DNA of 57,159 nucleotides, from positions 1-57,159 of the IMG/VR virus record IMGVR_UViG_3300005294_000044; one strand, 5' to 3'. Under the pieces are notes generated by a model. That model worked only from the letters and a program-made list of their open reading frames with translations. It had not been told where the DNA came from and searched no databases. Positions 1 through 57,159 of this stretch are shown one piece after another. The number at the start of each line of letters is the position of its first letter. Position 1 is the first letter of the stretch. This DNA comes from a virus. Lineage: Duplodnaviria > Caudoviricetes. The position numbers and the translations under genes were made by a program.

Positions 1-111
1 GTAACGCTAGCAAGGCTTTGCAGTGCATGTTTCCCTATTTTTTGGTAGAGTTGGTGGATCCAGAAAGTACAGGTTCACGGAGGTGGATGCGTGGCGCGAA
101 GGTTGGAGGGT
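1..111. repeat. Inverted repeat, left copy (exact reverse complement of 56202-56312)
   Basis: Base-by-base comparison: position 1 pairs with 56312 and 111 with 56202; first mismatch at 112. Contains TGG-TAGAGT (-10-like), GGAGG RBS and the first 7 codons (MARRLEG). Confidence 0.97.
43..51 (+). promoter_or_regulatory. Putative early promoter, extended -10 TGG-TAGAGT after a T-tract
   Basis: TANNNT with TG extension upstream of the RBS and the first ORF; related TTTTTGG-TANNNT copies at 56371-56379 (+) and about 56485-56497 (-). Confidence 0.5.
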
Positions 112-360
112 CTTCCCTTCGAGCGGTTGTACTTGATCAAGGCCGACAATCAGTGGCCGGTCTACGCCTGCGAGAGCGCGTCACAGGCGATCGTTCAGGT
201 GAAGACCCTCAAGAACCAGTCGGATGATCCCCACAACATCAAGGTCCGGGTGTGGCTCCTGACCCCGCTCGGAGCACAGATCACCGTGGAGGAGCTGGAG
301 CTTCAGCAGAAGGTGATCCAGGAGACCCTGGTACCGGCCGGGTTGGCGGTTAAGGAGTAA
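91..360 (+). CDS. Hypothetical protein (MARRLEG start, shared with 55938-56222)
   Basis: ORF with GGAGG RBS; 5' end lies in the inverted repeat. Confidence 0.8.
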   Translation: MARRLEGLPFERLYLIKADNQWPVYACESASQAIVQVKTLKNQSDDPHNIKVRVWLLTPLGAQITVEELELQQKVIQETLVPAGLAVKE

Positions 361-363
361 GGA

Positions 364-651
364 ATGACCCACGAAAGGGCGCGAAGGTTGGAGGGTTGTC
401 CCGAAGCGGTATGGGTGCCTTCGCCAGGGTGGGTGGTGCCCTGCGGGGAACCACCAGTTCCAGGAGAGCACCACTGTCCGCGCCACAGACCGAAGATGAT
501 GGAGAGGACCTATGACAAACGAGGAGAGGTTCAGGTACTTCCTGATCAGGGCCGAACAGGTCCAGCTCAGGATCGAGAAGATGGAGGAAGAGGTCCTGGC
601 CCGCTACCAGGCGGACCCGACCCGCAACCAGGGCCAGGGGCCGTGGGCTGA
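364..651 (+). CDS. Small Cys/His-containing hypothetical protein; 3' end uncertain
   Basis: AAGGAG RBS; contains ARRLEG again; long overlap with the next ORF. Confidence 0.5.
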   Translation: MTHERARRLEGCPEAVWVPSPGWVVPCGEPPVPGEHHCPRHRPKMMERTYDKRGEVQVLPDQGRTGPAQDREDGGRGPGPLPGGPDPQPGPGAVG

Positions 652-799
652 GGCCAGCAAGGAACTGGACAAGGACCAGGGCTACCGGGGAATGGTGAAC
701 CGACGCACCGCGTACCAGGAGCAGGCGCACATGTACGGCCTGGGAGCGATCCTGGACGCGCTACAGGCGGGGAACAGCATCCGCCCCCAGGACTGCTAA
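512..799 (+). CDS. Hypothetical protein
   Basis: GGAGAGG RBS, GC3-rich codons. Confidence 0.75.
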   Translation: MTNEERFRYFLIRAEQVQLRIEKMEEEVLARYQADPTRNQGQGPWAEASKELDKDQGYRGMVNRRTAYQEQAHMYGLGAILDALQAGNSIRPQDC

Positions 800-905
800 C
801 CTTCCCCACGTCGCACGCTTCGGAGGAACACCGAGGCGTCCCGGGGGGCCTGTACGACACCGTGCGGCCGGTTTGGGGTAGAACCCCTGGCCCTCCACCA
901 AGACC

Positions 906-946
906 AGCCCCCTGACCTGGATTGAAGCCGGGTCAGGGGGCTTTTT
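906..946 (+). terminator. Intrinsic terminator
   Basis: AGCCCCCTGACCTGG/CCGGGTCAGGGGGCT stem followed by TTTT. Confidence 0.75.
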
Positions 947-953
947 GGCGTCC

Positions 954-983
954 TTGACCTTGTGTACCGGGGAGGGGTAGGGT
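954..983 (+). promoter_or_regulatory. Putative sigma70-type promoter
   Basis: TTGACC-N18-TAGGGT just after the terminator and upstream of the GAGGAGG RBS. Confidence 0.55.
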
Positions 984-1003
984 GCTCATACGAGGAGGTG
1001 AAG

Positions 1004-1351
1004 ATGCTTGAAATCGAGTTCATCTACGACTGCGGGTGGCGGGTCATCTACGGACCATCGGTAGAGGACCGGGCCCTACCCCTGAAGGACCTGATCAAGA
1101 TCCACGAACGCGAAGCAGACTTCAAGCATGTCCTGAAATGCACCACATGTATGGAGGGGTTCAGTGTCCCAGGGCGAAGAAGACCGACAGCCACCGGACC
1201 CTTGGATGAGTTGGCGCACCCGCCTGGTCGGGTGGCTGTTCAAGAACAAGACACGGTCCCTGAGGGCGGGAGTCAACCCGATAACCCACAAGATCATCGC
1301 GGCCTACCTGACCGGGGACCAGGAGCTGATCTTCCTGATCACTATGTCTGA
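1004..1351 (+). CDS. Hypothetical protein; probably really ends at 1209 (suspected missing G at 1156-1159)
   Basis: Strong RBS before ATG 1004; one extra G gives an ATGA overlap with the ORF starting at 1206. Confidence 0.55.
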   Translation: MLEIEFIYDCGWRVIYGPSVEDRALPLKDLIKIHEREADFKHVLKCTTCMEGFSVPGRRRPTATGPLDELAHPPGRVAVQEQDTVPEGGSQPDNPQDHRGLPDRGPGADLPDHYV

Positions 1352-1415
1352 AACTGAAGCCAGGGCCTGGATCAGGGAGATCGAGGCCGCCCTCAAGGTA
1401 AGGGAGATGATGTGA
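1206..1415 (+). CDS. Hypothetical protein
   Basis: ORF 1164-1415 with likely start MSWRTRL at 1206. Confidence 0.65.
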   Translation: MSWRTRLVGWLFKNKTRSLRAGVNPITHKIIAAYLTGDQELIFLITMSETEARAWIREIEAALKVREMM

Positions 1416-1557
1416 GCTACTTCTACATAGGAAACCACCGAGCACCTCGCGAACACTGGGATCCCCTGCACCGGCTCAACCTTCAGCTTCAGTACTGGTT
1501 CTTGGGCTTCCAGGGGTTGCTGGCCTGGGTGAGCGCCCCCTGGAAGAGGGTGGCCAA

Positions 1558-1830
1558 GTGAGCGAGATGGCCGCCTGGGAGTGCCAATTGTGGGCTGAGA
1601 TCGAGGCCCTACCCATTGAACAGCGGGTCATCGTCTACGCCGAGGCGATCATGTACATCACCCGGGAGCTGCTGTCCAAGCTGGGTGACCGGCGCCGGGA
1701 GCTGATCCTTCAGATGCTGGACCAGCCGGACATGGACGCGATGAAGGTTGCCGAGCTTATCGGCAGCCGACGTAAGACGGTTCAGCGGCTGGCTGATGAG
1801 GGTCGGCAACGGCTTCGGAGTAAGGGGTAG
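1558..1830 (+). CDS. Helix-turn-helix DNA-binding protein
   Basis: C-terminal KVAELIGSRRKTVQRLA HTH-like pattern. Confidence 0.6.
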   Translation: MSEMAAWECQLWAEIEALPIEQRVIVYAEAIMYITRELLSKLGDRRRELILQMLDQPDMDAMKVAELIGSRRKTVQRLADEGRQRLRSKG

Positions 1831-11296: not shown

Positions 11297-11368
11297 AGCG
11301 GAGTAGAGCAGCAGTAGCTCGTCTGGCTCATAACCAGAAGGTCACAGGTGCGAATCCTGTCTTCGCCA
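11297..11368 (+). tRNA. tRNA-Met (CAT), initiator-like, no encoded CCA
   Basis: Cloverleaf AGCGGAG/CTTCGCC-A, GAGC/GCTC, TCTGG-CTCATAA-CCAGA, ACAGG-TGCGAAT-CCTGT. Confidence 0.88.
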
Positions 11369-11369
11369 C

Positions 11370-13026: not shown

Positions 13027-13559
13027 GGGACCATCGCCGTCACACCGGGGATAAAATCGAAGTCTGCTATGCCCGGCCTACGCGCCAGTAGGAACACCCC
13101 AGGCGCCTCGGGATCGTCTTCAAGCTCCTCAACAGTGAGCCCTACCAGTCTGGCAATCGCATACATGGCATCCACCGTGTAGCGCCAGGTGTCGATCGGA
13201 TACGGATGGTACGGGAACCCCGGGGACCGGGTGGTGACGAGCAGGTAGCCGCCCGGGATGACCAGATCCGCCAGCGCCAGCACACTGATCTTCCAGTCGA
13301 CCACATGCTCCAGCATCTCGGTGCTGATCACGAGTTCGAACTGGCCGAAACGCGACCGGGCCTGAGCTAGGTCACATACCTGATCCACGCCAGGGCCAGC
13401 CCCAATGTCAATGCCCAGGTAACTGTCTGGCCCGAGCGCCCCCACGATCGGACGCACCGATCCATTCACGTTGTATGAGCCAACCTCGATCACCCGTTGA
13501 CCACGGACATGCTCGACTGTCAGGACTTTTCTGGTCCAGGCCAGAACTGAATCATGCAT
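13023..13559 (-). CDS. Class I SAM-dependent methyltransferase
   Basis: VIEVGSYNVNG...YLGIDI..GPGVD...FELVISTEMLEHV...PGG..H.YP.D.WR. Confidence 0.88.
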   Translation of the reverse strand: MHDSVLAWTRKVLTVEHVRGQRVIEVGSYNVNGSVRPIVGALGPDSYLGIDIGAGPGVDQVCDLAQARSRFGQFELVISTEMLEHVVDWKISVLALADLVIPGGYLLVTTRSPGFPYHPYPIDTWRYTVDAMYAIARLVGLTVEELEDDPEAPGVFLLARRPGIADFDFIPGVTAMVP

Positions 13560-14761
13560 TACAGCACCACCGGATACGGGATCGGGACCAGCCATTTGGT
13601 GGACTTGTAGTGGCTCAGGTCAGACTTGCGTAGCACTGAGCCCAGGTAGTTCCAGGCCAGCAGCAGGTACAGGTCGGGGTAGCCGCGCTCCAGCTCCTGC
13701 TCGGGGGAGATGATGGGGATTCTGGTGCCGGGGGTGAACTTACCCACCTTGGCTGGGGTGGTGTCCACGACGTAGTCGATGACATCGGAGTCCAGGCCAC
13801 AGAAGTTGAGCAGGGTGGTGGACTTGGCCGTGGCCCCGAATCCGGCGATGGTGCCGTAACGGTACTGGTCGATCAGGCTGAAGAGTCGGTGGGCTACGTG
13901 CTGGACCCGACCCTGGAAAGAGCTATAGGTGTCAATGTTTCGAAGCCAGCTCTCAGTGTAGAGCTGGTGATGTCGAGCCTTGGTCCAGTCCTTACTGACA
14001 CTGACCCGGATCGACCCACCCTGTGGTTCAGTCTTTCTGATGCCCTGGATGTGCAGCCCCGCCCGCTGGAGCAGGTTGCTCAGGGAGTTGATCGAGAAGT
14101 AGAACCGGTGCTCGTGGTAGACGTGGTCGAACATGTTGCCAGCCAACAGGTCCCCCAGGTACTGGACCTCGAATACGGCCACACCATCAGGGGCCAGCAG
14201 ATCGGCCACCCCGTTGAGGAAGTCGTGCGGATCCGCAACATGGGCCAGGACGTTGTTGGCGATGATCAGACCAGCCTGACCGTGCTCCGCCCGCACGTCC
14301 TGGGCCAGGGCCCGGTTGAACGGCTGGGTGAGGATGTCCAGGCCAGAGTCCCGGGCCACCTGTGACGGTCCTCCGGCCGGGTCAATGCCCAGGGTGCGTC
14401 CTCCATGATCGGCGAAGTGACGTAGCAGGGAACCATCGTTGCTGGCGATCTCCACCGTGAGATCTTTGATCTGCCAAGGGTAGCGCTGGATCAGGTCCAG
14501 GGCATAGTCGCGGTGATAGCGCTGGATCGGGGCCAAGGTGCTGGAGTAGAACATGTAGTCCTGGTTGAACAGGACCTCATCCGGCACCACCTCGCGAAGC
14601 TGGACCAGGAAGCAGTTCTCACACACCAGCAGGCTCAGGTCGTAGGTGTCCGGGTCGTCGTCCACCTTGTCCATGAAGGCGCCGGCCAGTGGTGTGGATC
14701 CAAGCTCCAGGAAGAACCTCAGTTCCATGGACCCGCAGCTGGCACATTCTTCACGAATCAT
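13559..14761 (-). CDS. NDP-hexose C-methyltransferase (Zn-binding N-domain, SAM domain, C-methyltransferase C-domain)
   Basis: CASCG...LG.TPLA..F...L..C.NC.LVQL; EIASNDG; ANNVLAHV; FDHVYHEH; GATAKSTTLLN; GKFTPGTRIPI; LAWNY; VPIP. Confidence 0.9.
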   Translation of the reverse strand: MIREECASCGSMELRFFLELGSTPLAGAFMDKVDDDPDTYDLSLLVCENCFLVQLREVVPDEVLFNQDYMFYSSTLAPIQRYHRDYALDLIQRYPWQIKDLTVEIASNDGSLLRHFADHGGRTLGIDPAGGPSQVARDSGLDILTQPFNRALAQDVRAEHGQAGLIIANNVLAHVADPHDFLNGVADLLAPDGVAVFEVQYLGDLLAGNMFDHVYHEHRFYFSINSLSNLLQRAGLHIQGIRKTEPQGGSIRVSVSKDWTKARHHQLYTESWLRNIDTYSSFQGRVQHVAHRLFSLIDQYRYGTIAGFGATAKSTTLLNFCGLDSDVIDYVVDTTPAKVGKFTPGTRIPIISPEQELERGYPDLYLLLAWNYLGSVLRKSDLSHYKSTKWLVPIPYPVVL

Positions 14762-17265: not shown

Positions 17266-17486
17266 GCCATCCCCAGTCCGTGAAATCGTCGCCAGCAACT
17301 CGTGCACCGCACAACTGGCACGCCTGCGTTCTCTCTTAGTCCCCACTGGTTTACTCGGTCGGTGTGACCAACCTTCAGGGCGTCAGCTCCGCAGTCTGCG
17401 CACGTGCCCATGATCATGGGGCCGTGCAGCGTGACGTAGTAGCTGTAGTCATTCAGTGTGACCTTGGAGCCGATCTCCGGGTTCAC
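17262..17486 (-). CDS. Small Zn-ribbon protein
   Basis: CADCG...CTSC; GTGA/ATGA coupled on both sides. Confidence 0.65.
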   Translation of the reverse strand: MNPEIGSKVTLNDYSYYVTLHGPMIMGTCADCGADALKVGHTDRVNQWGLRENAGVPVVRCTSCWRRFHGLGMA

Positions 17487-18541
17487 CCGCGCTCCATCTC
17501 GTACGCCCGGGTCCACGCCTCCATCTGACGCCAGGCGTTGACCTCATAGGTTTGATCTTGCATGTACGTCCTCCCCGCTTCGGCCTGCTCCTTGCGGAGA
17601 ACCTCATCGGTCAACAGGGCCTTGAGCTGGCTGTACCACTGTTTCGGGTGATCGGCCAGCAGGCCCGCCCCCGCCTCCCGGGTCAGCCTACGGTATTCCT
17701 CCCGGGGGGAGGCAACCCATGGGATCCCGAGGGCGAACATCTCGATCCCCTTCAAGCGGGACTTGGCCGCATTGAACGTGGACGGGGACAAAGGGGCCAT
17801 ACCCACATCCATGGTGTCAGCGATCGTCAAAGCCCACTTGTCCAGGGTCATGGAGCCGGTCATCTGCGGAGCCTCGTTCAGCTTCAAGGCGGCCTGGACC
17901 TTGCGGTCGCCGCCCACGATCCGCAACTGGTGCCCCTCGTCGACCAGTTGTTGGGTGGCCTTACCGGTCACCTGAAGGTCGTCCGGGTGGCTGTTGGTGG
18001 TCCCGGCCCAGCCAAAGCATCCGGTGTTGGGCTTGTCAAAGTTCAGGTACGCCTGGGGCACATAGTTGTCGATGACCATTCCCCGCCCATGCTTGGCATA
18101 GGTCTTGAGCAGGGCCCGGGTGGAGCAGGTGACCAGAGTGGCCCGCTTGCAGGACTCAGCCGCCCACTTCCACGAGAACGGGCTACCGGAGCGGGGCCGG
18201 TACATCTGAAAGGCGCTGTTATTGGGGTGGATCGTGGACATGTCATCATCCATGTCCACGACCACCGCCACCTTGTTCTGACGCAGGCAGTCAATCATCT
18301 GGGGCTGTAGTGGGTGAGCTGGACGCTGGATCACTACCACGTCCATGTCCTCGGGCATTTGGATCGAAGTGAGGATCTCCTGGCCGTTGGATCCCTCCAT
18401 CGTCTTGGCCAGGAAGCCAGAGCCCTTTTTCGGTGGCACGATCTCGATGTTGTGGCCCTGCTTCTGGAGCACGTTGGCCGGCCAGATCAAACGGTTGTGA
18501 CCACAGGCGTGAGCGTCAGCCGGGATTACGTACACCTTCAT
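17483..18541 (-). CDS. GT-B (GT4-like) glycosyltransferase
   Basis: ACGHNRLIWP, VVIQR, DMDDD, FGWAGT..H..DL, APL...FN.AKSRLK.IE..ALGIP.VAS. Confidence 0.9.
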   Translation of the reverse strand: MKVYVIPADAHACGHNRLIWPANVLQKQGHNIEIVPPKKGSGFLAKTMEGSNGQEILTSIQMPEDMDVVVIQRPAHPLQPQMIDCLRQNKVAVVVDMDDDMSTIHPNNSAFQMYRPRSGSPFSWKWAAESCKRATLVTCSTRALLKTYAKHGRGMVIDNYVPQAYLNFDKPNTGCFGWAGTTNSHPDDLQVTGKATQQLVDEGHQLRIVGGDRKVQAALKLNEAPQMTGSMTLDKWALTIADTMDVGMAPLSPSTFNAAKSRLKGIEMFALGIPWVASPREEYRRLTREAGAGLLADHPKQWYSQLKALLTDEVLRKEQAEAGRTYMQDQTYEVNAWRQMEAWTRAYEMERG

Positions 18542-33146: not shown

Positions 33147-36100
33147 TCACTCCCCCTCTGTTTCTTCAGAATACCGGTGGATCAGCTCCTGGATCAGAGA
33201 GGACCTGGTGTTTACCCTCTTCGGGATGCCCAGAGAATCAGCCCACGCCCGCAACTCTTCCAGCGACAGGTCGGCTATAAGGTCACCGATCCGTTTCGGG
33301 GTCGCCTCACCAACGTTCAGTTCGTCAACCTGGTCCCGGATGCCCCTCCACTGAGTCGGGGCGGACTCTGACCGACTGGCCCGCAACTCCTCCTTCCGAG
33401 CGTCCATGAACATCAACAGGTGTCGGTCCTTGGCCCCGATGTGAACGCCCGCATCGCGTTGCCGCTGAGTCAATGTCTTCTGGTTCGACTCACCGATCAG
33501 TTGGGCTTTACGGCTACGGTTCATCGCATGCAGAACACGGTCAACCTGCTCCCGGGGGAACTGGTCGTCAAGAGCGTCACGAAGATCGGCCAACGAAACG
33601 ATGTTGGCACTAGCTCCCTCTGTCGCCTGTCGATCGACCATATCTAGGAACGTATCCTCGATGGTGCGCTGGACCGCAGTATCGTCCACTGGGCCTTTGG
33701 GTGCCGCATACCGATCGATCAGGCCCTGGATGATCCAGTCCCTGCTCCGGGTGCTAACCCCATGCTGACCGCTCAGTTCCTTCAGCTCCTTGAACGTGAG
33801 CCCAGCCACCGCATCACGAACCTGCTGCTCGGACTTGGCACCCTGCAACCGCTCCAGGGCACCTTGGAGCAGGCGCCCTTCCAGGGAGTCAGCCTTAGCT
33901 TCAGCAGCCTTGACCGCAGGGGCCACCTTCTTGGCCGGGGCAGCCTTGACCGAGGGGCGCTTGGTGCCCTGGAGACGCTTGGCCAGCTCAGAAAGTTGAT
34001 CCGCCTCTGCGTATCTAGCGAGCTTCAGCCTCTCTCTCTCGGCGATGAATTCGGGATCGTAGAAGGGGCTTGAAGGATCCGTCATTGAACTGTTGCCAGC
34101 CCCGTAACGTATCGCGGCAGAGCCCCTCCGAGCACTTGCACTGCGCTCTAACCATCTACCGATAGCCGCAGGCGTGGAGTTCTTCGGCAATCCGCCTACT
34201 GATTCACCATCAAGAGCACGTTGAACGTCGTCAAGATACGTCGACTGTCCTGGAGCCAGAGCCTGATCCCACTTTTCAATGCCCAGACCCTCGGCCAGGA
34301 TCCGGGCATCGAGCTTGCCCTTCTCCTTGGGTAGGGCCGGTGGGGCCGCCTTCTTCGGTGCCGCCTTCTTGATCGGAAGTCGCCGGGGGGAAGGATCACC
34401 GAATAGGACCGCGTTCTGTTCTTCGCCACCAAGGTTCACCGCAGCGGCGCGATCCCGGTCCGTCAACGCCTTCCGGTTCGCGACCGGGATCAACCGCACA
34501 CTCTTCTTGCCAGTGAAGTCGTACCCACCGCCGAACCCGATGATCCCGGCGATCGCCTCGTCCTGCTGGTCGCGGGTCAGGTCACTTAGCGCGGGGTGCT
34601 CACGAAGGTCGGCCAAGCCCACCCATTCGCCTGGACTACGAAGATCGCGATAGGCGACCCGGACCCGGTTATCGAGTTGCACCGCACGTACGGCCGGATC
34701 AGTCGACAGCCCCGACGGGCCACGGCCCTCAAGGTCCGCCGCCGACGTTGTCTTGCGGGGAGCAGGTTTCTTGGCAGCACGACGATCCAGCTCCTGCTGC
34801 GCCACCTGACGGGCGATGTCCTGGATCACTTCATCCTTGGTCTCGCCCTTGGGTCGCTTCAGGCCCTGACGCTCCACTTCGTCTTTCAGTTGCTCAGGAG
34901 TGGCCTTCTGGAGCGCGTCATGGACATCGGCCGGCAGTTCGAGCTGGAGGACTTCCTTCTCAGTGAGTGGGGCCTCTTCCTTGAAGTGGTCCCGCATGAA
35001 GCTGGACGCCTTCTCCTGGGCTGCGATCCCCTCCTCCAGGGCGTCAGCCTGGGCGATGAGCTTGCGCCGCTCAGCCGCCGGCATGTCGCCACGTAGCGTG
35101 GCGTCAATGTCGGCCAGCTCGTCCTTGTTGAGGGAGACCTCACTCTCCAGACGCCGGACCCCCTCCTCCGGACTGATCTTGCCCGTGGCGACATCGTCAC
35201 GGATCTCGGTCAGGGAACGTCCAGCCGACCCGGGCGCCTTGATGTCAGCCGAGTTCCAAGCCTCTTTGAAGGAAGCCTTGCGTTCCGTGGAGGCGATCGG
35301 AACCTGAGCCTTGGGACCGGGAACCGACCCTTCCGGGACAAGCTTCTGGGCCTTGACCGTGGCCGGGGAGGCTTCCACCACCTGGGGCTTGAACAGGCGA
35401 ATGTCCTCGTCCCCGCGCTTGAAGCTGTAGCCACGGCGCACGATCTCCACCGGGGTGCCAGCCTTGATCCCGGTACCACTGTGCTTGGCCGAGTCAAAGG
35501 GAACAACCTCCCCCGCCTTGTTGATCGGGGTCAGGCCAGCTTCGGAGGCAACCTCATCAACCAGCCGGGACAGGGCAGGTGTGTCGCCTCTGTCGACGGC
35601 CTGTAGCCAACGGTCCCGAACGTCGTCAGGAACACCGAGACGCTTGGCAGTACTGGTGATGGTCCGTCTCACCACGGCCGGATCGGCCTGGTTGTTGAGG
35701 ATCTCATCAACCTCGGACGCGGCGGTGGCGATGGACCCCACCTTGTTGATGTCGGCCTGACGAGTGTTGGCAGCCGCTTCTGCTGCTGGGACTAAGGGGG
35801 CTGCCTTCTTGGCTGCTCTGCTCCCGGCTGCGCTGCGCAGGTCCCGACTGTCCTGGATGGCCTTGACGATGTCAGCCTTCAGGGCCTTCTTGGGCAGGGT
35901 GATGTTCTCGTCCAGGGCAATCTTGCGAAGCTCGGAGACAGTGTTCTTCTCCAGTGGTCGTTCTGCTCCAGCAACAGCCTTCTTTGCCGGTACCTTCTTG
36001 GCTACCTGCTTCGCCTCCTGCTCCAGGCGCTGGGCTTCCTCGACAGCCCCCCGTTCACGACTGACTTCCGCGTCGCGACGTAGCAGCTTCGCCTCATCGG

Positions 36101-38195
36101 CAGCGGTGACCCGGTCGCCACGCTCCAGGGGCTTGGTCGGTGCAGTCTTACTGTCCCGGGAGCGCTGGATCTCCTTGACGATGTCGGCCTTGAGCATCTT
36201 GGACTTGAGTTCAACGCCCTCAGTTCCAGCGATGTCCCGAAGTTCTTTGATCGTGTTCTTCTCAAGGGGGCGTTCGGCTGGAGCCTCGGGTACTGCCTTC
36301 TTAGTGACACCGCCACCTGGACTCAACCATGCCCGATGGGCGCTACCTCCAGAGTTGACTAGCTTCCCGGTTTCCGGGTCCATGAGGTCATACATCCCGG
36401 CACGGGATTCGATCCGAACAAGACGACCATCAGCCTTCGGACCTTTACGGTCACTGCCGTGATACATGACAATGTCGCCAGGTTTAGCCCCAAAGCTCTT
36501 GATCGTGCCCCACGAAGGCTTGCCAGCTTCCGGAGCCGCTTTGGGAACAGCCTCCTTGACTGGTACTTCTGAAGCCTTGGGTGCAGCCGGTGCCGCCTTC
36601 TTGACCGCCGCCTTGGGCGCGACCTTCTTTGCCGGACCCTGGATCTGGTCCACAAGGGACTGAAGTCGCTGGTGTTCCGGGTTGTCCGGGTTGAACTTGC
36701 CCTCCTGGTGCATCCGCTCGACCCGGTTGACCACAGCCTGACGCTGCTCCGGGGTCAGACCGGCAGCCTTGGTCCCACCTTGGGAGGAGACAGCTTTACG
36801 GGCAGCCTTGGTAGGCGCTGGCGCTTCGGGGGCGGCAGGAGCCTGCGGCGTGGCGGGAGCAGGCGCTGACGGTGTCGAGGTTTCCTGCTTCTGGTCAAGG
36901 TTGTACTTCTCCCTGATCAGGTCAGCCAGTTGCTCCTGGGCCTTGATGTCATCGGCCAGGTGCTCGTCAACCCGACCGGCGCTGCGATTACCTTCCAGGG
37001 TCGACTTGTTGACCCTGATGTCGGTCTCCAGCTCTCGCAGGGCGTCACCAGGGTCCTTCTTCCCGGCGGCTACCCCCAGGTAGGCGGAGTTCCACTGCTG
37101 GCGCCGGGGCCCGGCCGAAGGGGCAGGGAGCAGGGCATCGCGCACAGCGGTGCGGAACTCTTCAGGCGTCGGGACCGTGGAAACTGCCTCGGGTGCCGGG
37201 GCTTCGCCTGGTGCCGTCGGAGCCTGGACCGGCTCGTTGCGTGGCTCCACGCCCTGGGGCAGTTGCTCGGAAGTCTGGGGGGATGGAACCGCTGGCTCAG
37301 ACTGACGCAACCTCGTGTCCGGCTGCTCGTCCAGCTTGCGCTGCGCCTCCTGGGCGGTAGCGGCACGCTGGTTGGCGGACTCGATCTCTCGTAGTTCCGA
37401 AGGGGGATGGGCGTAAGAAGTTGCGGCCCGAGAAATCCTCTCCTCGCGCTGCGCTTCAGTTAACGGTACGCCCCGGGGGCTACGACTGATCGGCTCCGGG
37501 GTGGCTCCCTTGGTGCGGGGGGTGGCCACGGCCATCACGTAGTAGCCGCCGGCCCCATCAGGCTGGACCTTTGTTATCCGGATCTCTTGATCATGGTCCA
37601 GCATGATGGTTCGACTGTCCCGGTCACGGGCCGGAATAATCGCTGTGGTTCCCTTGGGTACCGCGATGCGAACCGAGATCTTCCCCTTCCCGGGAGGTTC
37701 AGTTTGTCCCGTGATAATGCCACCAATATGTGCCCCGCTATATGCCCGGTCAGCGATCAACTGACCCATGAGCTGGTCTTTCAGGCCACCTTCTGGCAGA
37801 TCTAGTTGATCTTCCGTCAAGCCAAAGGTCTCTGGTCTGACAGTTCGGGTAATGATGATGTCGTCAGGTAGAGAGAGTTTGTGACGATCCATCATCGCCA
37901 CAAACTTCTTGGTGGTTTCATCAATGTCGCCAGACCGTAGATGCTCATTGGTCTGGTCGATGTCCATACTCAGTCGAGTCAGATCTGAAGCCTCGAAACG
38001 AGTATGTGGCAGATTGAATAGGTACTGGGCGGCCTGACCATCACTTCGAAAGGTCCTGGGACTGAAGCCCTCCAAGAACTTCAAGATGCGTTGAGCTACC
38101 CCAGTGGCCATCTTCCACTTGGTCCGGAACTTGCCGTCAGGACCGCGCGGATGCAGCAACTCATCCGCAGTGCCCCAAACGTGCCCGATACCCAT
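33147..38195 (-). CDS. 1682-aa mosaic head-region protein (degenerate ADP-ribosyltransferase-like N-domain, Rho-N-like repeats, GrpE-like motif, KKAAP linkers)
   Basis: Motifs read from the translation; located between the protease and capsid genes. Confidence 0.75.
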   Translation of the reverse strand: MGIGHVWGTADELLHPRGPDGKFRTKWKMATGVAQRILKFLEGFSPRTFRSDGQAAQYLFNLPHTRFEASDLTRLSMDIDQTNEHLRSGDIDETTKKFVAMMDRHKLSLPDDIIITRTVRPETFGLTEDQLDLPEGGLKDQLMGQLIADRAYSGAHIGGIITGQTEPPGKGKISVRIAVPKGTTAIIPARDRDSRTIMLDHDQEIRITKVQPDGAGGYYVMAVATPRTKGATPEPISRSPRGVPLTEAQREERISRAATSYAHPPSELREIESANQRAATAQEAQRKLDEQPDTRLRQSEPAVPSPQTSEQLPQGVEPRNEPVQAPTAPGEAPAPEAVSTVPTPEEFRTAVRDALLPAPSAGPRRQQWNSAYLGVAAGKKDPGDALRELETDIRVNKSTLEGNRSAGRVDEHLADDIKAQEQLADLIREKYNLDQKQETSTPSAPAPATPQAPAAPEAPAPTKAARKAVSSQGGTKAAGLTPEQRQAVVNRVERMHQEGKFNPDNPEHQRLQSLVDQIQGPAKKVAPKAAVKKAAPAAPKASEVPVKEAVPKAAPEAGKPSWGTIKSFGAKPGDIVMYHGSDRKGPKADGRLVRIESRAGMYDLMDPETGKLVNSGGSAHRAWLSPGGGVTKKAVPEAPAERPLEKNTIKELRDIAGTEGVELKSKMLKADIVKEIQRSRDSKTAPTKPLERGDRVTAADEAKLLRRDAEVSRERGAVEEAQRLEQEAKQVAKKVPAKKAVAGAERPLEKNTVSELRKIALDENITLPKKALKADIVKAIQDSRDLRSAAGSRAAKKAAPLVPAAEAAANTRQADINKVGSIATAASEVDEILNNQADPAVVRRTITSTAKRLGVPDDVRDRWLQAVDRGDTPALSRLVDEVASEAGLTPINKAGEVVPFDSAKHSGTGIKAGTPVEIVRRGYSFKRGDEDIRLFKPQVVEASPATVKAQKLVPEGSVPGPKAQVPIASTERKASFKEAWNSADIKAPGSAGRSLTEIRDDVATGKISPEEGVRRLESEVSLNKDELADIDATLRGDMPAAERRKLIAQADALEEGIAAQEKASSFMRDHFKEEAPLTEKEVLQLELPADVHDALQKATPEQLKDEVERQGLKRPKGETKDEVIQDIARQVAQQELDRRAAKKPAPRKTTSAADLEGRGPSGLSTDPAVRAVQLDNRVRVAYRDLRSPGEWVGLADLREHPALSDLTRDQQDEAIAGIIGFGGGYDFTGKKSVRLIPVANRKALTDRDRAAAVNLGGEEQNAVLFGDPSPRRLPIKKAAPKKAAPPALPKEKGKLDARILAEGLGIEKWDQALAPGQSTYLDDVQRALDGESVGGLPKNSTPAAIGRWLERSASARRGSAAIRYGAGNSSMTDPSSPFYDPEFIAERERLKLARYAEADQLSELAKRLQGTKRPSVKAAPAKKVAPAVKAAEAKADSLEGRLLQGALERLQGAKSEQQVRDAVAGLTFKELKELSGQHGVSTRSRDWIIQGLIDRYAAPKGPVDDTAVQRTIEDTFLDMVDRQATEGASANIVSLADLRDALDDQFPREQVDRVLHAMNRSRKAQLIGESNQKTLTQRQRDAGVHIGAKDRHLLMFMDARKEELRASRSESAPTQWRGIRDQVDELNVGEATPKRIGDLIADLSLEELRAWADSLGIPKRVNTRSSLIQELIHRYSEETEGE

Positions 38196-45317: not shown

Positions 45318-47612
45318 TCAGAGGAGTCGGCCCAGGTCGTAAAGCTCCTGGCCGAGACGGAAATCGTACTTGCCTGGATCCGACACCCGCATCCGTCGTT
45401 TCTCCCCCGCCATCAGGTATCGACAGGCATGGACCAGGGCGTCCATCCGGTCCGGGGAATCGCGGGTGGACTCGGGATCGAACAGAACCATCTGGTTCTC
45501 CAGCTCCTCGAATTCCGCGCACTGGGACAGGTCCACTACACCACAGGTGCAGACCATATGCAGGCGTCCCTGTTCGTTACGCATAGCCACCGGCTCGGCC
45601 CGGGTCTTCTTCCCGTGCTTGGAATCCACACCCTTCATGGGGGGGGTGGTGCCGGGCGGGAACAGCCTTTCCTCGTCGCGTAGTTCCACGTACGCATCCT
45701 GGAGCACTTCCTGCATCCAGCGCTTACCCAGGTTGGTTTCATAGACGAGAAGATCTGCTCGGTACTGGGCCAGGACCCGCCACATGTGAATAGCAGCCGC
45801 TCGACCAGTGCCAGGGAAGCTGTGATCTGCGAGCACGAACATTTCGTCCGCCGGGTCCCGACCCACCACCACGATCCCGGTCTCGGCCTCTTCGCCGGTG
45901 AGGTTCGGGTCCACTCCCACAACGCGGGCAACCAACTCATCGGGAACTCCTACGATCCGGTTGCGGTAGATGTCCATCCGTTTGAACAGTCCGCCCCCGG
46001 TGGCGTCAAGCATCTTGCCGTACAACTCCTGCTCACCCAGGGCGGTGCCGGCGTAGCGGTTCTTCAGCTCCCGCAGCACGTGCTGGGACAGGTTGTCAGC
46101 ATTGTCGAAGGTGGATCCACCCATGACGTGGACGGTCCCGTCACTGCGGGACAGCCATTCGATCAGGAGCTTGATCGGCTTGGGGGTGGTGGTGACGAAT
46201 GCCCGTGGGTGATCGTCGACAAGGTCGATGCGGAGCGAAGGCAAGATGCCTTCATACCAAGACTCGTATGGCTTGGGCCACTTGGCTAACTCGTCGCAGT
46301 TGTGGATCTTGATACGACCTGAACCAGCGAAGAACTCGGGAACATTCTCCACGACCAGGTCAAAGACATCAGCGGGGTTGATCTCCCGCTCTACGTGCAG
46401 CACGACCACTGGCACCGTATCTACGGGCTGATTCTCGTCGACAGTCGTCTGAACAGCGTTTGGCTCGCATCCCGGTACTGAGGAAGGTACTACCGCACAT
46501 GTCGCAGATAACTGGACGCGGTTCCCGTCGTTGCCAGTAGGCCCGGAGCCGGTCGCGAACCGCCTCTGGTGTCTGGTGTCTCGTCCACGCATCATCGTCT
46601 CGTTGCAGGGCAGTAAGTCTGCGATGGTCTGAGATGGTGAGAAGTTCAAGGTTCGATAGGGAGTTGTTACTTCGGCTTCGATCGATGTGATGGATCTCGT
46701 AGCCCTCGGGGATGACTCCATGGACGCTGATCCAGACGGCTCGATGCAGGAGCATCCCGTCTCGGTTGTAGTAGTACCTGGCCCGCTTGTTGTAGAACCA
46801 GGACTCTCCTCCCCACTCGAAGAAGGCGGGGGCTGAGGATGGCACAGGATCTGCGTATCCATTTTGGATGACCATGACGATAAGGTATCACCAATATGGA
46901 CCTGATCTGCTCTTACCCAAGATCCATTAGCCCATATTCGGTGATCGCCGGTGACGGCAACGGAACCTTGCGAGGTGTGTATGCGGAGTACTTGGGCACC
47001 CTTGCCGGACAACCCGCTTCGAAGCACCCGCCGCCATCCCTGAGTGGTCGCCACCAAATCTCCGGGCTGAACGTTTTCTATGCTTACTGGGCCCTTGAGG
47101 GTGACGACAGGTTCGCCCTCAGCCACGCACCAACAGCCCGAGGCGTTGTATCCACGCCCCACATCCTCGTCATCCGCACCTTCCGCGTAGACCTTCACCC
47201 CATCCGGGAACAGGACCATGGGACGGGGGGACTGCTTGTAGCGGTGGGGCATCTTGCGCCGGTCCAGAACGGAGAGCATGCCAGCCGGCCCGTCCATACA
47301 GATGGTGCGGGTATCGGCCAGAGTCTCCCCGATGACCAACCACTCGGTGGGGCGCCCAGCTCGGTCGACCGGGTGCTTCTGGATCTGGTCAGTGAGCCAC
47401 TCCGAACCGGCCCGACTCTTCCCCCAACCTCTGCCGGCAAGAGCCAGGGCGACCAGCCAGTCCCCAGGTGGGGGGATCTGCTCCGGTCGGGCGACCCACC
47501 ACCACTCTCCCCGGGCCATCTCCTCCAGGGCCAGGTCGGACTGTTCCGACAGCCACTGTTCCCGGACATCTGTCGGAAGTCGGGAAACTCGTTTGAGAAG
47601 GGACAGGCCCAC
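45318..47612 (-). CDS. terL: Terminase large subunit containing an intein
   Basis: Walker A AGRGWGKS; spliced Walker B GCWCDE; TTTPK; GEQELYG; VGVDP; SPDRMDA; likely GTG start at 47612. Confidence 0.93.
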   Translation of the reverse strand: MGLSLLKRVSRLPTDVREQWLSEQSDLALEEMARGEWWWVARPEQIPPPGDWLVALALAGRGWGKSRAGSEWLTDQIQKHPVDRAGRPTEWLVIGETLADTRTICMDGPAGMLSVLDRRKMPHRYKQSPRPMVLFPDGVKVYAEGADDEDVGRGYNASGCWCVAEGEPVVTLKGPVSIENVQPGDLVATTQGWRRVLRSGLSGKGAQVLRIHTSQGSVAVTGDHRIWANGSWVRADQVHIGDTLSSWSSKMDTQILCHPQPPPSSSGEESPGSTTSGPGTTTTETGCSCIEPSGSASMESSPRATRSITSIEAEVTTPYRTLNFSPSQTIADLLPCNETMMRGRDTRHQRRFATGSGPTGNDGNRVQLSATCAVVPSSVPGCEPNAVQTTVDENQPVDTVPVVVLHVEREINPADVFDLVVENVPEFFAGSGRIKIHNCDELAKWPKPYESWYEGILPSLRIDLVDDHPRAFVTTTPKPIKLLIEWLSRSDGTVHVMGGSTFDNADNLSQHVLRELKNRYAGTALGEQELYGKMLDATGGGLFKRMDIYRNRIVGVPDELVARVVGVDPNLTGEEAETGIVVVGRDPADEMFVLADHSFPGTGRAAAIHMWRVLAQYRADLLVYETNLGKRWMQEVLQDAYVELRDEERLFPPGTTPPMKGVDSKHGKKTRAEPVAMRNEQGRLHMVCTCGVVDLSQCAEFEELENQMVLFDPESTRDSPDRMDALVHACRYLMAGEKRRMRVSDPGKYDFRLGQELYDLGRLL
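46299..47129 (-). mobile_element. Intein (277 aa) in the TerL Walker B motif
   Basis: GCW|CVAEGEPV...TGDHRIW...VFDLVVE...FFA....IHN|CDELAKW. Confidence 0.92.
46369..46875 (-). CDS. HNH endonuclease nested out of frame inside the TerL intein
   Basis: LHRAVW...G.IPEGYEIHHID....NN...NLELL...H plus CDMCG...CS..C; own ATG and stop; frame differs from TerL. Confidence 0.85.
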   Translation of the reverse strand: MVIQNGYADPVPSSAPAFFEWGGESWFYNKRARYYYNRDGMLLHRAVWISVHGVIPEGYEIHHIDRSRSNNSLSNLELLTISDHRRLTALQRDDDAWTRHQTPEAVRDRLRAYWQRREPRPVICDMCGSTFLSTGMRAKRCSDDCRRESARRYGASGRAARRAGDQPR

Positions 47613-47706
47613 GAGATGATCATAAACGGCCTGTAGTATCAAAGGACCACCCGGCGTCTTTGGCGCCGGGCTTCTTTTGTCGTATCCAGGGGGTACCCTG
47701 ATCAAC

Positions 47707-48129
47707 ATGACTTCCGAAATGATTGAACACGTTCTTCTTGGCCGTGAAGTGGTAGAAGACGGCCGTCTCAAGCAGCTTCGCGAGCAGCTCGGATTTTCGG
47801 TGAACATCATGTCCGAGGTGCTCTACATGAATGCTGTCAGCTACCGACGTTGGGAATCTGGCACTGGTGCGGCCCTTCGTCCCTCTATTGCCGAGCGACT
47901 CGGTCGGTTCTATATCCAGGCCAATAAGGCGCTGGAGTTGCTGAGCGAACAGGGCCTGGACCTAGGGGGACTAATTCCGTTTCATCTGGTCGCCGGGGCC
48001 GCTGGGCTTCCCCATGAAATCCTGCTCCAGCACTGTCGCCAGGGTCGGGTCAACGGAGTGGACCTGGGCATCCTGGGGATGTGGCTTCGTCGCAGTGATC
48101 TGGACAAGTTCATGGCGGATGTGCGATGA
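47707..48129 (+). CDS. XRE-like HTH DNA-binding protein
   Basis: LKQLREQLG.S...MSE.L.....SYRRWESG; divergent from terL; likely start 47707. Confidence 0.75.
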   Translation: MTSEMIEHVLLGREVVEDGRLKQLREQLGFSVNIMSEVLYMNAVSYRRWESGTGAALRPSIAERLGRFYIQANKALELLSEQGLDLGGLIPFHLVAGAAGLPHEILLQHCRQGRVNGVDLGILGMWLRRSDLDKFMADVR

Positions 48130-48959
48130 CCTTTGTCAACTGCCCGATCTGTCAGACCCCGGTTGATCCAGCAGCTGGCACCACCCATCCAGGTTGCGCC
48201 CCTTGGGCCGATGCTGGAGAAAATCCTGATGCAGCCCTGTTGAAACATGAACTTATGCAAATGATTCTATGGGCTGATCGGGATGCCCCCCGCTCCCGGC
48301 AGAAGATGATCGGACCCTCGCAGATCGGCGTGGTCTGTGACCGTCGCATCGGCTACCAGGTCGCCGAGATCCCTGAGGTCAATGTGGACGATGACCCGTG
48401 GCCAGCAATCGTGGGCACTGCAATCCACACCTGGCTGGATGCTGCGGTGACCAACTGGAATCTGGCCAACTCCTCCACTCGCTGGGTGACCGAGCGGACC
48501 CTTCCGGTGACCGATTTGATCACTGGCCGGGGTGATCTTTTCGATACTCACCGGGGCGTGGTCATCGACCATAAGGGGGCTGGCTCGACCGTCATGAAGC
48601 AGGTTCGAGTGCAGGGACCAAAGCCTGAACATCAAGTACAGGTTCAGCTTTACGGCCTGGGATACCTGAATCTGGGATACAAGGTCAATAAGGTGGCCGT
48701 CATCTACTACCCCCGTGCCGGATGGTTACGTGACAGCTACTGCTGGGTTGCTGACTTTGATCCGCAAGTGGCCTACGATGCTCTACATCGCCTTGGAGAG
48801 ATCAGTCGCACCGTTATAGGTCTGGACGTGCTGTCTAACCCCCATCGCTGGGAGCAGGTAGACGCTTGGCCCGGTAACGGTTGTGGACTGTGCCCGTGGT
48901 ATGACCCAGGGCGGGACAGCGAGCGCGGAGCAGACGACAGGGGCTGCCCCGGACGGTGA
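48126..48959 (+). CDS. Cas4/RecB-like PD-(D/E)XK exonuclease
   Basis: IGPSQIG..C.R...GTAIH...G..DL....VIDHK...Q.QLYG.G...C..CP. Confidence 0.85.
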   Translation: MTFVNCPICQTPVDPAAGTTHPGCAPWADAGENPDAALLKHELMQMILWADRDAPRSRQKMIGPSQIGVVCDRRIGYQVAEIPEVNVDDDPWPAIVGTAIHTWLDAAVTNWNLANSSTRWVTERTLPVTDLITGRGDLFDTHRGVVIDHKGAGSTVMKQVRVQGPKPEHQVQVQLYGLGYLNLGYKVNKVAVIYYPRAGWLRDSYCWVADFDPQVAYDALHRLGEISRTVIGLDVLSNPHRWEQVDAWPGNGCGLCPWYDPGRDSERGADDRGCPGR

Positions 48960-52149: not shown

Positions 52150-52195
52150 GGGCTCGTAAGCAAGGGGGTACTCCCCTAGATGGAGGAGTTCGTGA

Positions 52196-54732: not shown

Positions 54733-55941
54733 CTAGGGGGTCTCGGGACAGTTAGCCACCCTGGCGCCCAAGGTCAGGATCCGGTAGCTGGAGTCGATCG
54801 TAGCCACCCGGTTGTCGTGCCAGCGGGCCACGAGCGAGCAGTTGTCTACGTCTGCTGGCCCGAAGCCCCAGCTCTTGTCGATCACCCGGTTCCCGGAGAT
54901 GTCCGGGTAGAAGGCCGACCCCGAGGTCAGGAACCGCAGCACGTAGCCGCCGCCACCCACCAGGTTGTCCTTGAACACCCCACCGAAGCCGGCTGCCCCC
55001 ACCGCGATCGCGGCGTTGGCCTCAGGCTGTCCGATCCGGGCGTCGATGGTGTTGTGGATGACCTCCATGCCCCCGGGGATCCCGTCGAACTCCTGGATCC
55101 CGTCAGCGTGGGTCTCCACGTTCCCGTCCTGGACCAGCTTGACGAAGCTGTCCTGGATGGTCACCTTCTGGCAGCGGTTCCCCGAGTCACCACCGCCACC
55201 GATACGGAATCCTTCAGTGCTATTCCGAATATGAACCCGGATCGCGGTGTACCCACACACACCAACCGCCCCGGTTCCGCCCCGCAGAATGCCGCTGGGC
55301 GGGCCGACTGTGGTGTCCATGATGAGCAGCCCGTTGTAGGCCCGGTTAGAGACCTGGTTGTAGATCTGCCCGTAGACCATCGAGTTCTTGACCGTCACGT
55401 TCTGGGCCCGGATGAACAACGTCCCCTTGACCAGGAAGTTGTCCAGCACCCGCCCGTCCTGACTCACCGTCAGATCCCCGTTCACCGTGGTCACCGGATG
55501 CCAGGTGGCAGGCACACCGGTACAGCTCGCGGTCGGGTACGCCGGCAGTGCACAGGGCCACGTGGGTGAGGTGGGCGTGGGCGAGGGGGTAGGCGAGGGG
55601 GGTGCTGTGGTCGGGACAGAGGTAGGTGAAGACGAAGGTTCCGGCGTCGGTGTAGACGTACTCGAAGGCGTGGGTGTCGCCGAGAGCCGGTCCAATGCAC
55701 GTTGCGTGTCCTGTAGACATTCCTGCGCTCGCTGCTCCTGTTCGGGTGTGGTGGCCGACTCCAGCTTCACCTGGCAGCCGGCCAGGTCCAGTTGCAGGTG
55801 GTGTACAAGCTCATCGACCGGCACCGGATCTGCTACCGGTACCGGTCGACTGAGCGGGATCGTGACGGCCAGGACCAGCAGGCTCAGGGTTCCCAGCACA
55901 GCCGTGATCCAGTGTCGATTGCGTTGCATGGATCTGGTCAT
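54733..55941 (-). CDS. Secreted/membrane-anchored pectin-lyase-like beta-helix protein
   Basis: N-terminal TM, PT-rich linker, P....TGVP...I.A.NVT.KNS...HADGIQ...I.HNT...N.V.GGGY. Confidence 0.75.
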   Translation of the reverse strand: MTRSMQRNRHWITAVLGTLSLLVLAVTIPLSRPVPVADPVPVDELVHHLQLDLAGCQVKLESATTPEQEQRAQECLQDTQRALDRLSATPTPSSTSTPTPEPSSSPTSVPTTAPPSPTPSPTPTSPTWPCALPAYPTASCTGVPATWHPVTTVNGDLTVSQDGRVLDNFLVKGTLFIRAQNVTVKNSMVYGQIYNQVSNRAYNGLLIMDTTVGPPSGILRGGTGAVGVCGYTAIRVHIRNSTEGFRIGGGGDSGNRCQKVTIQDSFVKLVQDGNVETHADGIQEFDGIPGGMEVIHNTIDARIGQPEANAAIAVGAAGFGGVFKDNLVGGGGYVLRFLTSGSAFYPDISGNRVIDKSWGFGPADVDNCSLVARWHDNRVATIDSSYRILTLGARVANCPETP

Positions 55942-56222
55942 GGCTCCAGAGTAGGCGCCTTGGTCGCGGGGAGCGGTTCATAGAACTGCACCCCGTAGGT
56001 GTCCTCGTCCACACGCCAGAATCGCAGCCGACCCTTGCGGTAGTACGCGGCAGAGTACAGCCGCTGATGCAGGGTCTTGGCCGGCCAATGGGTGGGGAAG
56101 TCTTTTGTCCGGACTAGGTGCCAGACGTCCCCGTTCATTACATCGTCAAGGAACTCGAACTGGAACCGGAACACTCGCTCCATCTCCAGCCGTGCCTCTT
56201 CACCCTCCAACCTTCGCGCCAC
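55938..56222 (-). CDS. Hypothetical protein (MARRLEG start, shared with 91-360)
   Basis: Promoter, RBS and first 7 codons come from the inverted repeat. Confidence 0.8.
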   Translation of the reverse strand: MARRLEGEEARLEMERVFRFQFEFLDDVMNGDVWHLVRTKDFPTHWPAKTLHQRLYSAAYYRKGRLRFWRVDEDTYGVQFYEPLPATKAPTLEP

Positions 56223-56312
56223 GCATCCACCTCCGTGAACCTGTACTTTCTGGATCCACCAACTCTACCAAAAAATAGGGAAACATGCACTGCAAAGCCT
56301 TGCTAGCGTTAC
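56202..56312. repeat. Inverted repeat, right copy
   Basis: Exact reverse complement of 1-111. Confidence 0.97.
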
Positions 56313-56521
56313 GTACCCCTTCAAGATCAACTACGCTATAGACACTTTGCAGTGCGTTATTCCCTATTTTTGGTATTGTTTAGAACCTGATACAGACATA
56401 AACGGTTCAAGTATCAGCTTCTGGGCACGAAAAAGGGACCCTAGACGGCAATCTTCTAGAGTCCCTGCGCTTTACGAAAATGCGGAAAGTACCAAAAATA
56501 AGTTAGTTGATCTTGCGGAAC

Positions 56522-56860
56522 CTAGGAGCGGTTTTCCATCTCCTCGATCTGGGCCCTCACGATGCCCTGAATCCCCGCTCGACCCTCAAGATCGGCATCA
56601 GGCATCGAGGATTGTGGGGCATGTAGGCGATACAAGGAAGAGAGACGATCGAGGATTCTGAGTCCGGCTTCAATGAACCGGGGATCGGGCCTCATCACTA
56701 GACCAGTGTCCGGATTGACCTGCACCTGGATGTGTGGATCACAAGCCCTCCACGCCTGTTCCAGGCGCTGCACCACCAGGGCCCGCACGAAGGGCACGGA
56801 CGCGGTCACGTCCTCGTCCCTGATCCCAGCCTGTCCGGCTTCAAGTTCCCACATGCCCAT
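56522..56860 (-). CDS. Possible terminase small subunit-like protein
   Basis: RLEQAW...D......L.ILDR...L..L.AP resembles the helical core of actinophage TerS-like proteins; start could be 56878, 56860 or 56854. Confidence 0.45.
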   Translation of the reverse strand: MGMWELEAGQAGIRDEDVTASVPFVRALVVQRLEQAWRACDPHIQVQVNPDTGLVMRPDPRFIEAGLRILDRLSSLYRLHAPQSSMPDADLEGRAGIQGIVRAQIEEMENRS

Positions 56861-57122
56861 CAGGATGCAGGCAAACATGCAGTGTTGGGAAGATGCATAT
56901 CAACATGCACTCCGCTACACCATAATGTTCCTGGGTCATGGTCCCTCCCCCGCCAGGAGAATCAGGGCCCACGTTCAAGACATTGAACAAGAGTCATGGA
57001 TCAGGGAACAAGGGCACGGATCAGGGTGCTATGCGTAGCCTGGACCGGCCCCGTGTTCGTTTCCTCCGGTGCCTGCTTCTGGATCTTGTACCTGGGGGTG
57101 GATCTTGGAGCGTGGGCGTGTT

Positions 57123-57159
57123 CCCCCCTCATGATCATGGGGGGGGGTGGTCATGATCA
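57123..57159. repeat. Terminal palindromes
   Basis: C6-T-CATGATCATG-G8; TCATGATCA at 57129-57137 and 57151-57159. Confidence 0.8.

Follow-up and report, generated by a model that had tools for sequence, protein, structure and literature searches.

Inverted repeat at the two ends of the record

The window analyzed here is an entire IMG/VR virus record of 57,159 bp, a metagenome-assembled contig of a soil phage, and its edges are therefore assembly edges. The record is classified in IMG/VR as 'linear' (without end repeats), with a CheckV completeness of 89%. A repeat search confirmed that nt 1-111 are, as a sequence-only reading of this DNA had claimed, the exact reverse complement of 56202-56312 (111 nt, 100% complementary), and the same pair was recovered by BLAST within the record (E = 2e-54). 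The features of the two repeat copies (IR_A and IR_B) and of the gene arms A and B next to them are listed here; related contigs and loci (L) and related records (G) are introduced below.

1..111, + strand: inner tip of IR_A, 111 nt retained by the assembler; exact reverse complement of 56202-56312
91..360, + strand: first gene of arm A, 89 aa; first 7 codons inside the repeat
378..396, + strand: third exact copy of the 19-nt GGCGCGAAGGTTGGAGGGT found at the repeat's end; repeat search and BLAST
55938..56222, - strand: first gene of arm B, 94 aa; first 7 codons inside the repeat
56202..57159, no strand: IR_B, 958 nt of the ~1.07-1.10 kb repeat; a single unbranched contig in 4/4 runs
56271..56371, no strand: imperfect palindrome of two promoter-like blocks facing apart, TTTGCAGTGC.T..TTCCCTATTTTT; 39-nt arms, 79% complementary, 23 nt apart
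56430..56465, - strand: terminator-like hairpin GGGACTCTAGA..TCTAGGGTCCC followed by TTTTT, after the terminase-small-subunit-like gene; found by reading
56522..56878, - strand: 118-aa gene located within the repeat and, accordingly, present twice per genome; profile searches
56890..56912, - strand: conserved non-coding block GAGTGCATGTTGATATGCATCTT just upstream of the 118-aa gene; alignment A1
57100..57159, no strand: homopolymer and TGATCATGA-rich stretch at the record's end, strain-variable; indels in runs X2 and X7

The retained tip of IR_A contains an AT-rich promoter-like block, a leader, a ribosome-binding site (RBS), a GTG start and 7 codons. The inner repeat edge lies 21 nt into both 91-360 (+) and 55938-56222 (-), and the common N-terminus claimed for these two unrelated genes was recovered: both products start with VARRLEG, followed by LPFERL... 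in the former and EEARLE... in the latter. Both ORFs look coding given their GC3 values (0.84 and 0.76, respectively), and neither has a family in Pfam or PHROGs. Homologs of the arm B gene in L010 and L012 retain the N-terminal pattern GEExRLExERVFRF, so that the first codons look native to the arm B gene.

Of the control elements previously read in the repeat (a -10 element, an RBS and 7 codons), the last two stand, with the RBS-like GGAGGTGG located 6 nt upstream of the shared GTG. The -10 element was not recovered, a sigma-70 consensus scan of 55900-57159 having returned no sites; judged by its letters, TGGTAGAGT, at nt 46-54 and mirrored at 56259-56267, is a possible extended -10. The description of both arms as transcribed inward holds locally, for + strand genes from 91 to ~10992 and - strand genes from 56222 down to 53875, but gene direction switches further in, to + strand genes at 48126-53826 and - strand late genes at 47810-11503. 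The additional copy of GGCGCGAAGGTTGGAGGGT lies 285 nt downstream in arm A, where the overlapping ORF 364-651 lacks coding-type GC3; the 17-nt core has 3 matches against 0.01 expected. This copy might represent a binding site or the remnant of a former repeat boundary.

Length and copy number of the repeat in soil sequencing runs

Runs containing the last 10 kb of the window were sought, and 4 of the 24 listed were compared over 54500-57159: X1, the probable source run, and X2, X3 and X7 from other soil studies, all in the form of Logan contigs (k = 31), which leave out rare variants. The other 20 runs had word shares of 0.24-0.38 (one near zero), and no evidence on distribution was drawn from them. 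In all four runs, the arm B contig ends at 56231 and the arm A contig also ends 30 nt inside the repeat (in X1, it is the reverse complement of window positions 82-1792). A third contig begins at 56202 and runs unbranched to 57147 in X1 and 56938 in X3, whereas in X2 (1,095 nt long) and X7 (1,070 nt) it passes the window end by 138 and 108 nt, respectively. In 4/4 runs, the unbranched repeat piece, given as 946-1095 nt, is present at 1.5-3.0 times the depth of the arms:

X1: repeat contig 15.7; arm contigs 8.7 and 7.32; ratio to mean arm 1.96
X2: repeat contig 24.4; arm contigs 14.1 and 13; ratio to mean arm 1.80
X3: repeat contig 15.4; arm contigs 4.86 and 5.5; ratio to mean arm 2.97
X7: repeat contig 8.85; arm contigs 5.7 and 6.3; ratio to mean arm 1.48

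A 111-nt repeat would force a branch at 56312/56313, and this branch is absent in 4/4 runs; thus, the repeat is ~1.07-1.10 kb long and present twice. The sequence-only reading had proposed a longer repeat with a collapsed left copy and predicted about twofold depth over 56313-57159. Both proposals proved correct: an unbranched piece is joined by both arms at its inner end, and 56202-57147 is covered at about double depth. Judging from the unbranched contig, the second copy appears to be identical over its full length. The outer end of the piece in X2 and X7 is compatible with a branch or a dead end. Both of these runs have indels at 57118-57145, and the X1 contig ends, at 57147, in the same homopolymer and TGATCATGA-rich stretch, where strain variation would have broken the assembly.

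The strains in the three other soil studies (X2, X3, X7) are ~94-98% identical to this phage, with a longest Logan contig of 52,047 nt. In the strains of X2 and X3, identity is higher in the repeat (97-98%) than in arm B (about 95-97%).

Organization of the repeat cassette

From the outside to the inside, the cassette consists of the conserved block, the 118-aa gene, the hairpin with TTTTT, the palindrome of divergent promoter-like blocks, the leader, a G-rich RBS, and the start with 7 codons. This order is shared by the relatives, in which the place of the palindrome is taken by inverted motifs particular to each lineage, among them a 145-nt palindrome in L016. In the window, one block of the palindrome points into the arm and the other one outward, the latter, at 56333-56371 (+), matching the AT-rich promoter-like block at 79% in the opposite orientation. 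The terminator-like hairpin has equivalents in L008 and L010; the consensus promoter and terminator scan returned no sites, and this applies to the hairpin at 56430-56465 as well. The block GAGTGCATGTTGATATGCATCTT represents the best conserved non-coding columns of A1, an alignment of 6 sequences, and 56890-56910 is exactly common to two other X1 contigs. An Rfam search of 56150-57159 yielded nothing near the gathering score.

On the + strand, 56333-56470 comprises the outward promoter-like copy and then ~100 nt with two hairpins, ending at the terminator-like hairpin, which is two-way. This stretch could specify a small antisense RNA directed against the 3' end of the 118-aa gene.

The inner edge of the repeat lies just past the shared start codon in all relatives tested, with the following numbers of shared codons:

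G001: 1.3
G004: 2
G002: 4.3
window: 7
G005: 15
L008/L010: 17

One of the two first genes of G001 encodes an HTH_31 regulator.

The repeat encodes a homolog of an annotated terminase small subunit

A profile search with the 118-aa gene identified 470 homologs, and 23 of the 44 members of the family matched phrog_645. Among the best 120 of the 470, 66 are located on short contigs (900-1500 nt) and six on long ones (25-61.5 kb); this lends weak support to the pair of repeats proposed below, the collection consisting mostly of short contigs. The profile of the 118-aa gene aligned with residues 65-171 of gene 1 of Gordonia phage Lilbeanie (MW314850.1; hhalign 94.3%, E = 9.7e-8), which was also matched by tblastn (E = 0.01) and is annotated in its record as 'terminase small subunit'. 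The 118-aa gene is thus a homolog of the C-terminal two thirds of an annotated terminase small subunit, without the first ~64 residues of the Lilbeanie protein and without the N-terminal DNA-binding domain expected of a small subunit. In Lilbeanie, the gene encodes 196 aa, is present in a single copy and lies at the start of the record, with the large terminase gene immediately downstream, whereas in the window it encodes 118 aa with a truncated N-terminus, is duplicated, and does not adjoin the large terminase gene (45318-47810), from which it is separated by 8.7 kb.

Other comparisons of this gene gave no assignment. No consistent family was found in Pfam, tblastn searches of phages with the window's repeat gene and with P0097 produced no match, and a profile search of PDB sequences returned only rows at E 0.7. 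The AlphaFold model of the protein is helical (mean pLDDT 68.4), and a Foldseek search of PDB with this model gave no match at E <= 0.001.

Related phages carry the repeats inside the genome

Twofold depth is predicted equally by terminal repeats and by an internal pair, and relatives were therefore compared. The repeat's gene (56522-56878) retrieves five metagenome contigs with 65-71% identity. In L008, L009 and L011, the repeat-like segment leads into arm A genes; in L010, it leads into the arm B gene, and L012 has a homolog of the arm B gene downstream. L008 and L010 have 1,569 nt in common at 91% identity, followed by different first genes that share the same 17 N-terminal residues, and L008 extends 348 nt beyond the start of L010, with unique coding DNA there. 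L009 was rejected as evidence, the contig being probably chimeric: its positions 1-592 contain a bacterial CoA_binding_2 gene truncated to its C-terminal part (positions 43-115 of the 116 in the profile) and fused inside the small gene beside the repeat. Positions 45-100 of L008 (minus strand) resemble, by eye, the 3' part of a tRNA (T-arm and acceptor), but this candidate is unsupported, given that ARAGORN found no tRNA in L008-L012.

With P0098, a homolog of the repeat's gene, as the seed, seven IMG/VR loci (L014-L020) were obtained. In four of these, the outer edge of the repeat continues into 3.4-5.7 kb of unique DNA, hereafter S, which is followed by an exact inverted copy of the outer edge (overlaps of 69 nt in L015, 113 nt in L017, 86 nt in L018 and 111 nt in L019). 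The mirrored site is located 376-600 nt upstream of the repeat's gene in these four loci, and the relatives that show S are only 45-50% identical to the window in this gene. The outer-edge inverted overlap is absent in L014, L016 and L020: L014 and L020 end ~510 nt upstream of the repeat's gene (the window ends 281 nt upstream), and L016 reaches 5.4 kb outward without a terminal overlap.

The far contig ends of four of the five related records repeat the inner edge exactly and in inverted orientation, as nt 1-111 of the window do (121 nt in G001, 96 nt in G004, 115 nt in G002 and 69 nt in G005); no such overlap was detected at the far end of G003. The order in G001 and G004 is the inner tip of copy A, arm A, late genes, arm B, the whole copy B, S, and the outer tip of copy A, with repeats of 1,172 and 1,353 bp and S of ~5.6 and ~4.6 kb, respectively. 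With inverted tips at both contig ends, these two maps close as circles of ~64-65 kb. The S-bearing relatives are 62,359-64,011 bp long and are rated 96-100% complete: completeness is 99-100% where S reaches the repeat tip and 96% for G002, compared with 87-89% for the window, G003 and G005. The size of the window divided by its completeness (57,159/0.89) is ~64 kb.

Taken from these contig layouts, the repeats are probably internal and not genome ends. The linear genome with terminal inverted repeats that had been proposed for this phage conflicts with the four of seven related loci in which the outer edge continues and returns inverted. The alternative offered at that time, repeats flanking a segment of a circular genome, agrees with the circular map but not in the position of the segment: 56313-57159 belongs to the repeat, and the window lacks the segment between the copies. 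The claimed absence of a recombinase, PolB and a protelomerase was upheld: the window and four relatives, three of these five records being 96-100% complete, were searched in six frames, without a match to Phage_integrase (PF00589), Resolvase (PF00239), the ResT/TelK protelomerase (PF16684) or protein-primed DNA_pol_B_2 (PF03175).

Further searches for relatives were mostly negative. Comparison of 55800-57159 with phages by blastn detected no close relative, and no relative among viral contigs was found with the exact promoter-like pattern, the 402-aa arm B gene, the repeat's gene or alignment A2. The primase search of viral contigs identified L005 (76% identity) and two distant loci; L005, a contig cut inside the primase, was discarded as a source on genome ends. 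Searches of genome contigs with A2 and the primase yielded no isolate or MAG genome with the element. Actinoplanes phage phiAsp2, the best capsid match (42.8%), was considered as a similar layout and rejected, its replication and end regions being unrelated. A soil actinobacterium is the likely host of the phage.

The enclosed segment and parS-like sites

The ORFs of S in four relatives match one another, and none matches the window, so that S is missing from the contig rather than relocated within it. Ten S proteins had no match in Pfam or PHROGs and, hence, gave no tail-fibre signal. In G003, S has the orientation opposite to that in G001, G004 and L017; this is no proof of inversion because the phase of a segment beyond a 1.1-kb repeat is out of reach of short-read assembly.

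In relatives, the 16-mer TGTTTCACGTGAAACA, with at most 2 mismatches allowed, clusters within S and at the outer edge of the repeat, with up to 8 copies of this parS consensus in the S of one relative:

L015: 1812, 3453, 3735, 4504
L018: 19, 611, 931, 2103, 2395, 2817, 4595, 4967
L017: 1000
L019: 3127
L008: 373
L010: 25
L011: 297
L012: 17

No copies were found in the window, L005, L009, L014, L016, L020 or the five far ends. The core of TGTTTCACGTGAAACA is identical to the chromosomal parS of Mycobacterium smegmatis as given in the table of a review (PMC7022226). The phages encode genes with ParB_N domains, and the six-frame search of the window and four relatives found no ParA-type ATPase (AAA_31). 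Adjacent genes of the window, 52196-53020 and 53017-53826, encode a ParB_N-domain protein (Pfam 29.4 bits, above the cut-off) and a DUF6551 protein, the latter denoted ParB-like in PHROGs.

Alternative explanations of the repeat

Linear virion DNA of ~58.3 kb with the 1.1-kb repeat at both ends would produce the twofold depth and the unbranched repeat piece, and the positions of some contig ends fit it as well: L014, L020 and the window all end ~280-510 nt upstream of the repeat's gene, and L010 and L012 end 15-24 nt past the parS-like palindrome. Terminal repeats are improbable, however, given that four of the seven related loci continue for 3.4-5.7 kb past the outer edge and return inverted, that L008 runs 348 nt beyond the end of L010, that records without S are 87-89% complete as against 96-100% with S, and that protein-primed polymerase and protelomerase families are missing from all five records searched. 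A phage packaged by a terminase and ending in inverted repeats is, thus, not supported. We give little credence to a site-specific invertible segment of the Mu G or P1 C kind, in which a dedicated invertase would recombine the edges of the repeats, even though relatives have inverted repeats around a few-kb segment and S is reversed in G003. Resolvase-family and tyrosine recombinases were found in none of the five records, three of which are 96-100% complete, the ten S proteins have neither a Pfam or PHROG match nor a tail-fibre signal, and the repeats are much longer than a recombinase site requires.

S has been seen in relatives only, which would allow the two copies to abut head to head in the lineage of the window, as a ~2.2 kb palindrome without S. 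Long perfect palindromes are unstable in bacteria, and this arrangement is further at odds with the CheckV completeness of 89% and with L008, the closest relative with sequence past the repeat, which has unique coding DNA there; it is less credible still. An assembly or chimeric-read artefact would be a natural suspicion at contig ends, where artefacts gather, and L009 does look chimeric, but both junctions recur in 4 runs, which were assembled independently and come from 4 studies or samples, and related records obtained elsewhere show the same layout at four of their five far ends, so that we consider this highly unlikely. A short duplicated promoter cassette, with only ~111 nt repeated, is all that the record itself displays; with 56312/56313 unbranched in 4/4 runs and 56202-57147 at about double depth, its probability is negligible.

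A probable circular map with two inverted cassettes

The remaining explanation, to which we assign a probability of about 80%, is that the record is an incomplete short-read assembly of a genome with a circular map of ~62-64 kb, which contains two inverted cassettes of ~1.1 kb and from which S, of a few kb, is missing. The observations behind this reading are the length of the repeat, its double dose, its two junctions and the layout kept in relatives. IR_B (56202 to about 57297) would be nearly complete in the contig and IR_A reduced to nt 1-111, with S between the outer edges of the two copies, a position that the relatives predict for the lineage of the window. The cassette would give both diverging arms one start of transcription and translation and, in this way, could switch them on jointly. 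Recombination or gene conversion would keep the copies identical, and the end of the homogenised tract might drift inside the first gene, to leave 1-17 shared codons depending on the lineage. The same recombination could flip S, yielding two genome isomers without a dedicated invertase. A gene for a RecE/Cas4-like exonuclease is located at 48126-48959.

Kilobase-long perfect repeats that are kept down to 45% identity and end a few codons into the first genes point to selection or steady gene conversion, either of which would keep the control regions of the two early transcription units identical. For viral metagenomics, the repeat interrupts short-read assemblies in a consistent manner, generating records without S that are rated 'linear, 87-89% complete', and an inverted contig end can be misread as a terminal repeat. 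The presence of up to 8 copies of an actinobacterial chromosomal parS consensus in the S of relatives is a testable link between the phage and the segregation machinery of the host.

A broader scenario is speculative and, taken as a whole, rather unlikely. It envisages soil actinophage-like viruses, a widespread and uncultured group, with two perfect inverted cassettes of 1.1-1.6 kb, in which a truncated small-terminase homolog, perhaps with a packaging site, would be coupled to an early promoter and translation start, and which would enclose a flip-flopping S of 3-6 kb with host-type parS sites. Packaging or ejection might then proceed in both directions from identical sequence, and parS together with a phage ParB-like protein or the host ParB could provide for plasmid maintenance or interfere with host segregation, without an integrase or ParA.

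Comparison with known inverted-repeat systems

In the tailed phages Mu (G segment) and P1 (C segment), inverted repeats, ~0.6 kb long in P1, surround a segment of a few kb that is flipped by the serine invertase Gin or Cin, which switches tail-fibre genes. The phages described here resemble these systems in having inverted repeats around a few-kb segment (in G001 and G004, and by extension probably in the window), but differ in lacking a Resolvase-family gene in 5/5 records, in the S genes being without a family, and in repeats that carry a terminase-small-subunit-like gene together with early gene starts. The large inverted repeats of plastids and herpesviruses flip the enclosed unique region by homologous recombination. 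The likeness to these includes copies of at least 1 kb kept identical, a unique segment, drifting boundaries and the lack of a dedicated invertase; hosts and scale differ, and the present repeats are known from contigs, with isomers that would follow from the layout. Terminal inverted repeats are typical of protein-primed phages, such as phi29 and PRD1, and of actinomycete linear replicons, where, as in the window, the same sequence, inverted, heads two gene arms. Unlike in phi29 and PRD1, the repeats are internal in the relatives, DNA_pol_B_2 is lacking, and a large terminase and a portal are present; the replication gene of the window encodes a PrimPol-D5 primase-helicase. The hairpin-telomere phages of the N15 kind differ as well, the protelomerase family PF16684 having no match in 5/5 records.

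The internal inverted-repeat architecture is real, conserved and unusual; it would function in the manner of the plastid and herpesvirus repeats, and its likeness to the Mu G and P1 C segments is superficial. Short-read assemblers stop at a repeat within a genome and leave a short exact overlap of contig ends (COBRA, 10.1101/2023.05.30.542503). The break points observed here are alike in their exact end overlaps; the COBRA passages on this point deal with neither an inverted case nor this phage group. Within the available text of openly licensed papers, we found no case of such internal inverted repeats in a tailed phage.

Other genes of the window

The large terminase (45318-47810, - strand, 830 aa) appears interrupted: its Terminase_6N match starts only at residue 503, and residues 270-504 give an Intein_splicing match below the cut-off (22.7 bits vs 35.8), which suggests a gene split by an intein. 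Between the capsid and portal-region genes, 33147-38195 (- strand) encodes a 1,682-aa protein with sub-threshold Pfam rows only (ADP-ribosyltransferase exoenzyme, 19.4 bits vs 23.4; MCPVI; Rho_N) and short PHROG matches to endonuclease VII and Arc-like segments. A tRNA-Met gene (11297-11369, + strand) is located in the gap between the rightward early arm and the leftward late genes. The late genes 13559-14761 and 17483-18541 (- strand) encode a C-methyltransferase (Methyltransf_14/13/23) and a glycosyltransferase, and a similar group of glycosyl- and methyltransferases is annotated in phiAsp2.
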